DNA of 64,000 nt from Escherichia coli (GTDB taxonomy: Bacteria > Pseudomonadota > Gammaproteobacteria > Enterobacterales > Enterobacteriaceae): the NCBI RefSeq assembly GCF_036507355.1, contig NZ_AP027877.1. One strand, written 5' to 3'. Position 1 is the first letter of the stretch. The number at the start of each line of letters is the position of its first letter. Made by a program: the position numbers and the translations under genes. The notes beneath the pieces are model-generated. The model was not told where the DNA came from and did not search any database. It saw only the letters and a list, made by a program, of their open reading frames with translations. This document shows, one piece after another, positions 47,081 to 47,790 of the stretch.

Positions 47081-47790
47081 TCAGGCAAACCAGGCGGTCC
47101 AGGTGGCGGAAAGCGGCATTGCCAGAAGGAGTGCTGGAAGCATGTTGACCACCGGGAACATTTTAATGCCACAGATGCGTAATCCGGTTGCCAGCAGCAA
47201 TAAACCGCCTACGGCGCTGAAGTCTGCCATCATCGACGGTGTGGTCAGCGGTAATATCAGCGCGGCAGCCCACGCCAGCGTTAACTGGATGATCAGTAAT
47301 GGGATACTAATTACCGACACCGCAATACCCAGCGAGCAGGCGAAGATCATCGCCGTAAAGAAATCAAGAAATGACTTGGCGATTAAAATACTCGGATCGC
47401 CGGTCATCCCTTCGTTCATCGCCCCGAAGATCCCGGTGCCGCTGGCGCAAAACAGGACAATAATCGCGACATAATTCTGAATAAAAGATTCATGCGCTGG
47501 CTTCTTACGTGAGTGACGAAACAGATTTTGTGCTTTGGCGACCGCTGTATTGACGCCTTTCTCCAGCAGACAAATTTCGCCGATTAATGCTCCGAGTAAG
47601 GTTGCTAAAACCATCGCCGGAAGGTTGGCGCATTTCACCACCAGTAAAATACCAATCCCCAGCGATGCCAGACCAAAAATAGATGTCATGGAGACGCGCG
47701 GATACGTTCCGGTAAGCGTTGGCTGAGCAGTGCGCCGAGAACGCCACCCAGTAATACTGCACTAGCGTTGATAAAAGGGCCGATGACCAC
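47081..47790 (-). pseudogene. yqgA: DUF554 inner-membrane protein YqgA, interrupted by an apparent +2 frameshift near 47690-47700 (or a sequencing error)
   Basis: GTG at 47790 with SD aggaa opens MVIGPFINASAVLLGGVLGALLSQRLPERIRASP-stop (stop at 47688-47686); the rest of the protein resumes at ATG 47689 (MTSIFGLASLGIG...) in another frame; the span is 710 nt, i.e. 708+2. Confidence 0.65.

Follow-up and report, generated by a model that had tools for sequence, protein, structure and literature searches.

A 64,000-nucleotide stretch of Escherichia coli DNA (contig NZ_AP027877.1 of assembly GCF_036507355.1; hereafter the window) carries yqgA, the gene for a DUF554 inner-membrane protein, broken into two open reading frames (ORFs) by a 2-bp insertion in a short CG tract. 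With a probability of roughly 85%, we take this to be a genuine, recent and lineage-specific frameshift allele from which loss of function is expected, that is, a pseudogene. The window shares with yqgA of K-12 (b2966, 235 residues) its locus, its GTG start and its Shine-Dalgarno sequence, and differs from it in having (CG)3 rather than (CG)2 at codons 31-33, which leaves ORFs of 34 and 202 residues. The original prediction, made from the letters and the ORF list alone, had proposed that such an insertion splits the gene, and had offered a pseudogene, a phase-variable repeat or an assembly error as its explanation. The split itself is borne out by alignment, as is the first of the three explanations; independent assemblies speak against the error, and phase variation finds no support.

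The gene lies on the minus strand. A Shine-Dalgarno sequence, AGGA, is read at 47797..47800, 6 nt upstream of the GTG at 47790, the same GTG from which K-12 yqgA is annotated. From this start the 5' fragment (47686..47790, minus strand; 34 codons plus TGA), recognized by the ORF list, the DUF554 profile and the K-12 alignment, encodes MVIGPFINASAVLLGGVLGALLSQRLPERIRASP. Its residues 1-31 are native, covering the first helix and an Arg-rich loop, after which the shifted frame supplies A-S-P in place of V-S-M. The CGCGCG tract occupies 47695..47700, and the new TGA (47688-47686) overlaps the ATG of native Met34 (47689-47687) as ATGA at 47686..47689 on the minus strand, according to the sequence and the ORF list. 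The 3' fragment (47081..47689, minus strand), recognized by the ORF list, the DUF554 profile and exact-sequence look-ups, runs for 202 codons from that ATG and encodes native residues 34-235. Together the fragments span 710 nt. All the positions and features first proposed agree with the sequence and the ORF list.

Alignments of the locus to K-12 MG1655, E. coli 104 and YZ22MPE54 contain exactly one 2-bp gap, a CG missing from the references at the tract, which reads ATC-CGCGCG-TCTCC in the window and ATC-CGCG-TCTCC in the references; all E. coli references compared have (CG)2. The aligner places the extra CG at 47695-47696. The K-12 comparison had been suggested at the outset, with the reservation that the same sequence in K-12 would count against a split; K-12 lacks the insertion. 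Deletion of one CG restores a 708-nt ORF of 235 codons that reads ...ERIRVSMTSIF... across the junction, as predicted, and its product is identical to K-12 YqgA at 234 of 235 residues, the sole change being A229T. The 901-bp region that includes yqgA (47000-47900) shows 26 nucleotide differences from K-12, and near-identity of the proteins despite these differences indicates that purifying selection acted on yqgA up to very recent times. To judge from the sequence, the remainder of the gene is without decay since the frameshift, as a very recent event would leave it.

The insertion is not confined to the window. The exact 202-residue product is on record as BED20978.1 (a DUF554 protein in GenBank) and occurs on four other contigs; two carrier loci could be retrieved for inspection of the tract, contig CAJPYL010000036.1 of GCA_905398635.1 and the Logan assembly of SRR17480487, and both have the identical CG insertion. 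From 46900 to 50689, GCA_905398635.1 and the window are 100% identical. On the far side of the tRNA gene pheV the match deteriorates, with 16 mismatches over some 260 bp, and then gives way to another island, with other genes and an integrase only 91% identical. An identical core beside a different pheV island marks GCA_905398635.1 as a separate isolate of the same lineage.

The frequency of the allele was estimated with a 43-nt probe spanning the insertion, and with the same probe lacking the extra CG as a control, in searches of 5,426 complete RefSeq E. coli genomes. The (CG)3 probe found none among these genomes, which cover all phylogroups, while the (CG)2 control matched 5,308 of them, 3,235 exactly; the performance of the control makes the negative result for (CG)3 meaningful. 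The extra CG thereby sets the window apart from 5,308 reference genomes and is no pattern of chance. A 26-nt signature of the allele had no match in JGI metagenome contigs, and a search for literature on the carrier accessions found nothing. On these searches the (CG)3 allele, for which TTACCGGAACGTATCCGCGCGTCTCCATGACATC serves as a 34-mer, is rare and lineage-specific. The best identity of the window to any of the complete genomes, as compared over the core genes around yqgA, is only about 98.7% over positions 1-25000 and about 99.0% over 42000-54000, and the source lineage appears, from these sequence comparisons, to be poorly represented among them.

By position and by profile the broken gene belongs to its family. 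It lies in the orthologous place, with speC and yqgH on one side and pheV on the other, and the gene order speC-yqgH-yqgA-pheV is common to the window, K-12 and other E. coli strains. Only pheV follows yqgA; this tRNA-Phe(GAA) gene (46900..46975, minus strand; identified by ARAGORN) is a landmark for synteny and the site at which a variable island attaches. Against the DUF554 profile (PF04474) the 202-residue fragment scores 189.4 bits over profile positions 33-219, and the 34-residue fragment scores 25.2 bits over positions 1-30, only just above the Pfam gathering cut-off of 25.1 bits. The two fragments are collinear on the profile. In place of the single uninterrupted ORF of about 225-250 residues that includes helix 1, however, the window has an ORF split at codons 32-34, which makes the locus a pseudogene of the family rather than an intact member. 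A promoter and terminator scan of 46850-48200 returned nothing relevant to the split above the expectation from shuffled sequence.

The part of the protein that is cut off is conserved in the family. An AlphaFold2 model built from an 88-sequence alignment (pLDDT 95.7, pTM 0.90) agrees with hydropathy that helix 1 covers residues 4-22. The turn after it, with R25, E28, R29 and R31, is Arg-rich, and the model has helix 2 at residues 28-50, which puts the break within the opening turns of that helix. In terms of this model, the frameshift at codon 32 is one that separates helix 1 and the positively charged loop from the rest of YqgA. A search of representatives of 1.84 billion proteins returned 2,517 homologues, and in this unselected hit list full-length homologues (224-251 residues) align from query residues 1-12. 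Conservation was assessed in 87 homologues chosen by that same length range, within the alignment of 88 sequences. Residues 1-33 are covered by all 87, and G4, G15 and G19, all in helix 1, are invariant or nearly so and among the most conserved glycines of the family. Position 34 is Leu in 67 of the 88 sequences and Met in only 11, and given the prevalence of Leu, the family does not conserve the internal ATG as an alternative start. YqgA had no match among NCBIfam models and no sequence match in PDB. Removal of helix 1 with its three highly conserved glycines makes loss of YqgA function likely, on the evidence of conservation and the structural model.

The sequence of events that we favor is simple. 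One CG unit would have been duplicated in the CGCG tract, most likely by replication slippage as the repeat context suggests, and probably in a single event, with a shift of frame at codon 32. Ribosomes that start at the normal GTG would then stop after 34 residues, comprising helix 1 and the Arg-rich loop, and the other 202 codons (helix 2 onward) would be out of frame with these, headed by an ATG that lacks its own Shine-Dalgarno sequence. The expected outcome is loss of YqgA function and a pseudogene. Strain-specific frameshift pseudogenes are familiar from K-12, where ilvG and rph-1 are examples. Like these two, and like glcB in NZ_OZ197100.1, yqgA in the window combines a small indel in a well-conserved, non-essential gene with restriction to one lineage and no further decay; the differences are in the gene affected and in there being no known polar or regulatory consequence for yqgA. 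It is an ordinary frameshift pseudogene of a known gene.

Several points weigh against this interpretation. Over 3.7 kb the assembly of SRR17480487 does not differ from the window at all (100% identity), and the two may come from the same strain, in which case firm independence rests mainly with GCA_905398635.1. The insertion was judged from assemblies rather than from reads. Of the complete genomes searched, 118 of 5,426 matched neither probe, and the tract was positively read as (CG)2 in the other 5,308. Finally, the ATGA overlap of stop and start could allow some reinitiation, and split membrane proteins sometimes co-assemble.

This last point leads to the alternative that survives best, in which the broken gene still works. 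A 34-residue peptide carrying helix 1 and a 202-residue reinitiation product might co-assemble, or full-length protein might arise by rare -1 slippage at CCA-UGA. We consider this proposal improbable, and its narrower form, in which reinitiation at ATGA yields a helix-1 peptide and a remainder that together make a functional DUF554 protein, slightly more so. In its favor, stop and start overlap as ATGA; overlaps of this sort can couple translation, and the parts of a split polytopic membrane protein can complement one another. The break also falls at the boundary of the loop with helix 2 rather than in the middle of a helix, and the downstream frame is fully intact. An intact downstream frame is equally well explained by recency, however, and the carriers, being identical, give no signal of selection after the split. 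No purine-rich Shine-Dalgarno sequence was read within 15 nt upstream of the ATG at 47689, which counts against reinitiation. For slippage the corresponding feature is also missing, since no slippery heptamer of the form X XXY YYZ occurs at 47686-47705, and the two-frame arrangement of a programmed frameshift is absent both from the 5,308 E. coli genomes and from the homologues of the family. Database proteins that begin at the equivalent of Met34 were considered as natural short forms and rejected, these short matches being multiply frameshifted, error-ridden gene calls. Were the two-piece protein real, one slippage event would have produced a natural case of complementation within a split membrane protein.

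An error of sequencing or assembly, with a true genome of (CG)2 and an intact 235-residue yqgA, has in its favor that errors plausibly take the form of 2-bp indels in short repeats and that none of the 5,426 complete genomes showed the allele. The same error would have to have arisen in SRR17480487 (Logan assembly) and also in GCA_905398635.1, which its pheV island marks as another isolate. The rest of the window is also clean. Across the roughly 47 kb of alignment with the nearest references, the indels beside the CG of yqgA are all intergenic except one in glcB, where the frame break lies in the reference copy, annotated as frameshifted, and not in the window; no other gene of the window in this aligned portion is frame-broken. 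The (CG)5 tracts elsewhere in the window read as they do in the references. With independent assemblies sharing the insertion and a window otherwise free of frame breaks, an assembly error is very unlikely.

The glcB difference is an observation in its own right. The gene occupies 21592-23763 of the window (21593-23763 as L006) and has one extra C at 21674 relative to NZ_OZ197100.1, the closest reference for that part; in the window the ORF is intact, with a product of 723 residues. The glcB of NZ_OZ197100.1 is another strain-specific frameshift nearby, in the reference.

The remaining explanation for a real insertion is a phase-variable contingency locus, in which the length of the CG tract switches reversibly and turns yqgA on and off. 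Simple-sequence-repeat contingency loci, as in Haemophilus and Neisseria, vary in phase by slipped-strand mispairing, and the mutation in yqgA does lie in a dinucleotide repeat, a substrate for that process; the way in which the tract mutated, by adding one unit to a short tandem repeat, is probably the same as theirs. Unlike the tracts of those loci, that of yqgA is far shorter, with only 3 units, and shows neither length polymorphism among the carriers or the 5,308 genomes nor any sign of reversibility. Its length is equal in all three carrier assemblies, the window included, although in at least one of them there was time for the pheV island to be exchanged, and the complete genomes divide as 0 with (CG)3 to 5,308 with (CG)2. 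The window has fewer CGCGCG matches than expected, 21 against 36, and so no enrichment. Longer tracts are stable there: the (CG)5 tracts of glcD (17736-17745) and glcF (19973-19982) are as long as in a reference 1.3% diverged, and both genes are intact. With neither an unusually long tract nor length polymorphism among close isolates, phase variation at yqgA has very little probability.

That yqgA is naturally shorter can be dismissed, as the gene is intact in K-12 and the 5,308 genomes and all full-length homologues include helix 1.

The neighborhood of yqgA has features of separate interest. Downstream of pheV, positions 26500-46100 of the window hold a pheV-associated accessory island with defence genes. 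It includes a Lamassu-type cluster with LmuA-like genes at 40067-41119 and 41100-42419, LmuC at 42367-42942 and LmuB at 42932-46063; RefSeq labels these genes in YZ22MPE54 as "ABC-three component system". Elsewhere the island encodes a tyrosine integrase (38366-39553), a DUF927 protein (35718-37643), a WYL/DeoR regulator (30068-30781), a GmrSD/HEC-05 nuclease (27759-29636) and IS3-family transposase ORFs (26512-27324 and 34469-35125). The integrase does not lie next to the tRNA gene, and for this reason the island may be composite. The same pheV site is occupied by a different island in GCA_905398635.1.

A second accessory cluster lies between yghS and yghO, at 4996-14850. In NZ_OZ197100.1 the cluster is annotated with spt (serine palmitoyltransferase), an acyl carrier protein, a fatty acyl-AMP ligase, an NAD-dependent epimerase, a lipopolysaccharide biosynthesis protein and extra LptF/LptG paralogues. 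From that annotation it looks like a set for the synthesis and export of a sphingolipid-like lipid, unusual for E. coli.

The split yqgA implies no new mechanism, and beyond annotation its importance is small. The locus should be labeled a frameshifted yqgA pseudogene and not, as in BED20978.1, a 202-residue "DUF554 domain-containing protein". As none of the 5,426 complete genomes has it, the (CG)3 allele marks this E. coli lineage cleanly. For asymptomatic-bacteriuria E. coli, Hancock & Klemm (2007, cited in PMC8882828) reported yqgA as up-regulated during biofilm formation in urine and as contributing to it. Given this link, carriers of the allele are natural candidates for a yqgA-null phenotype.
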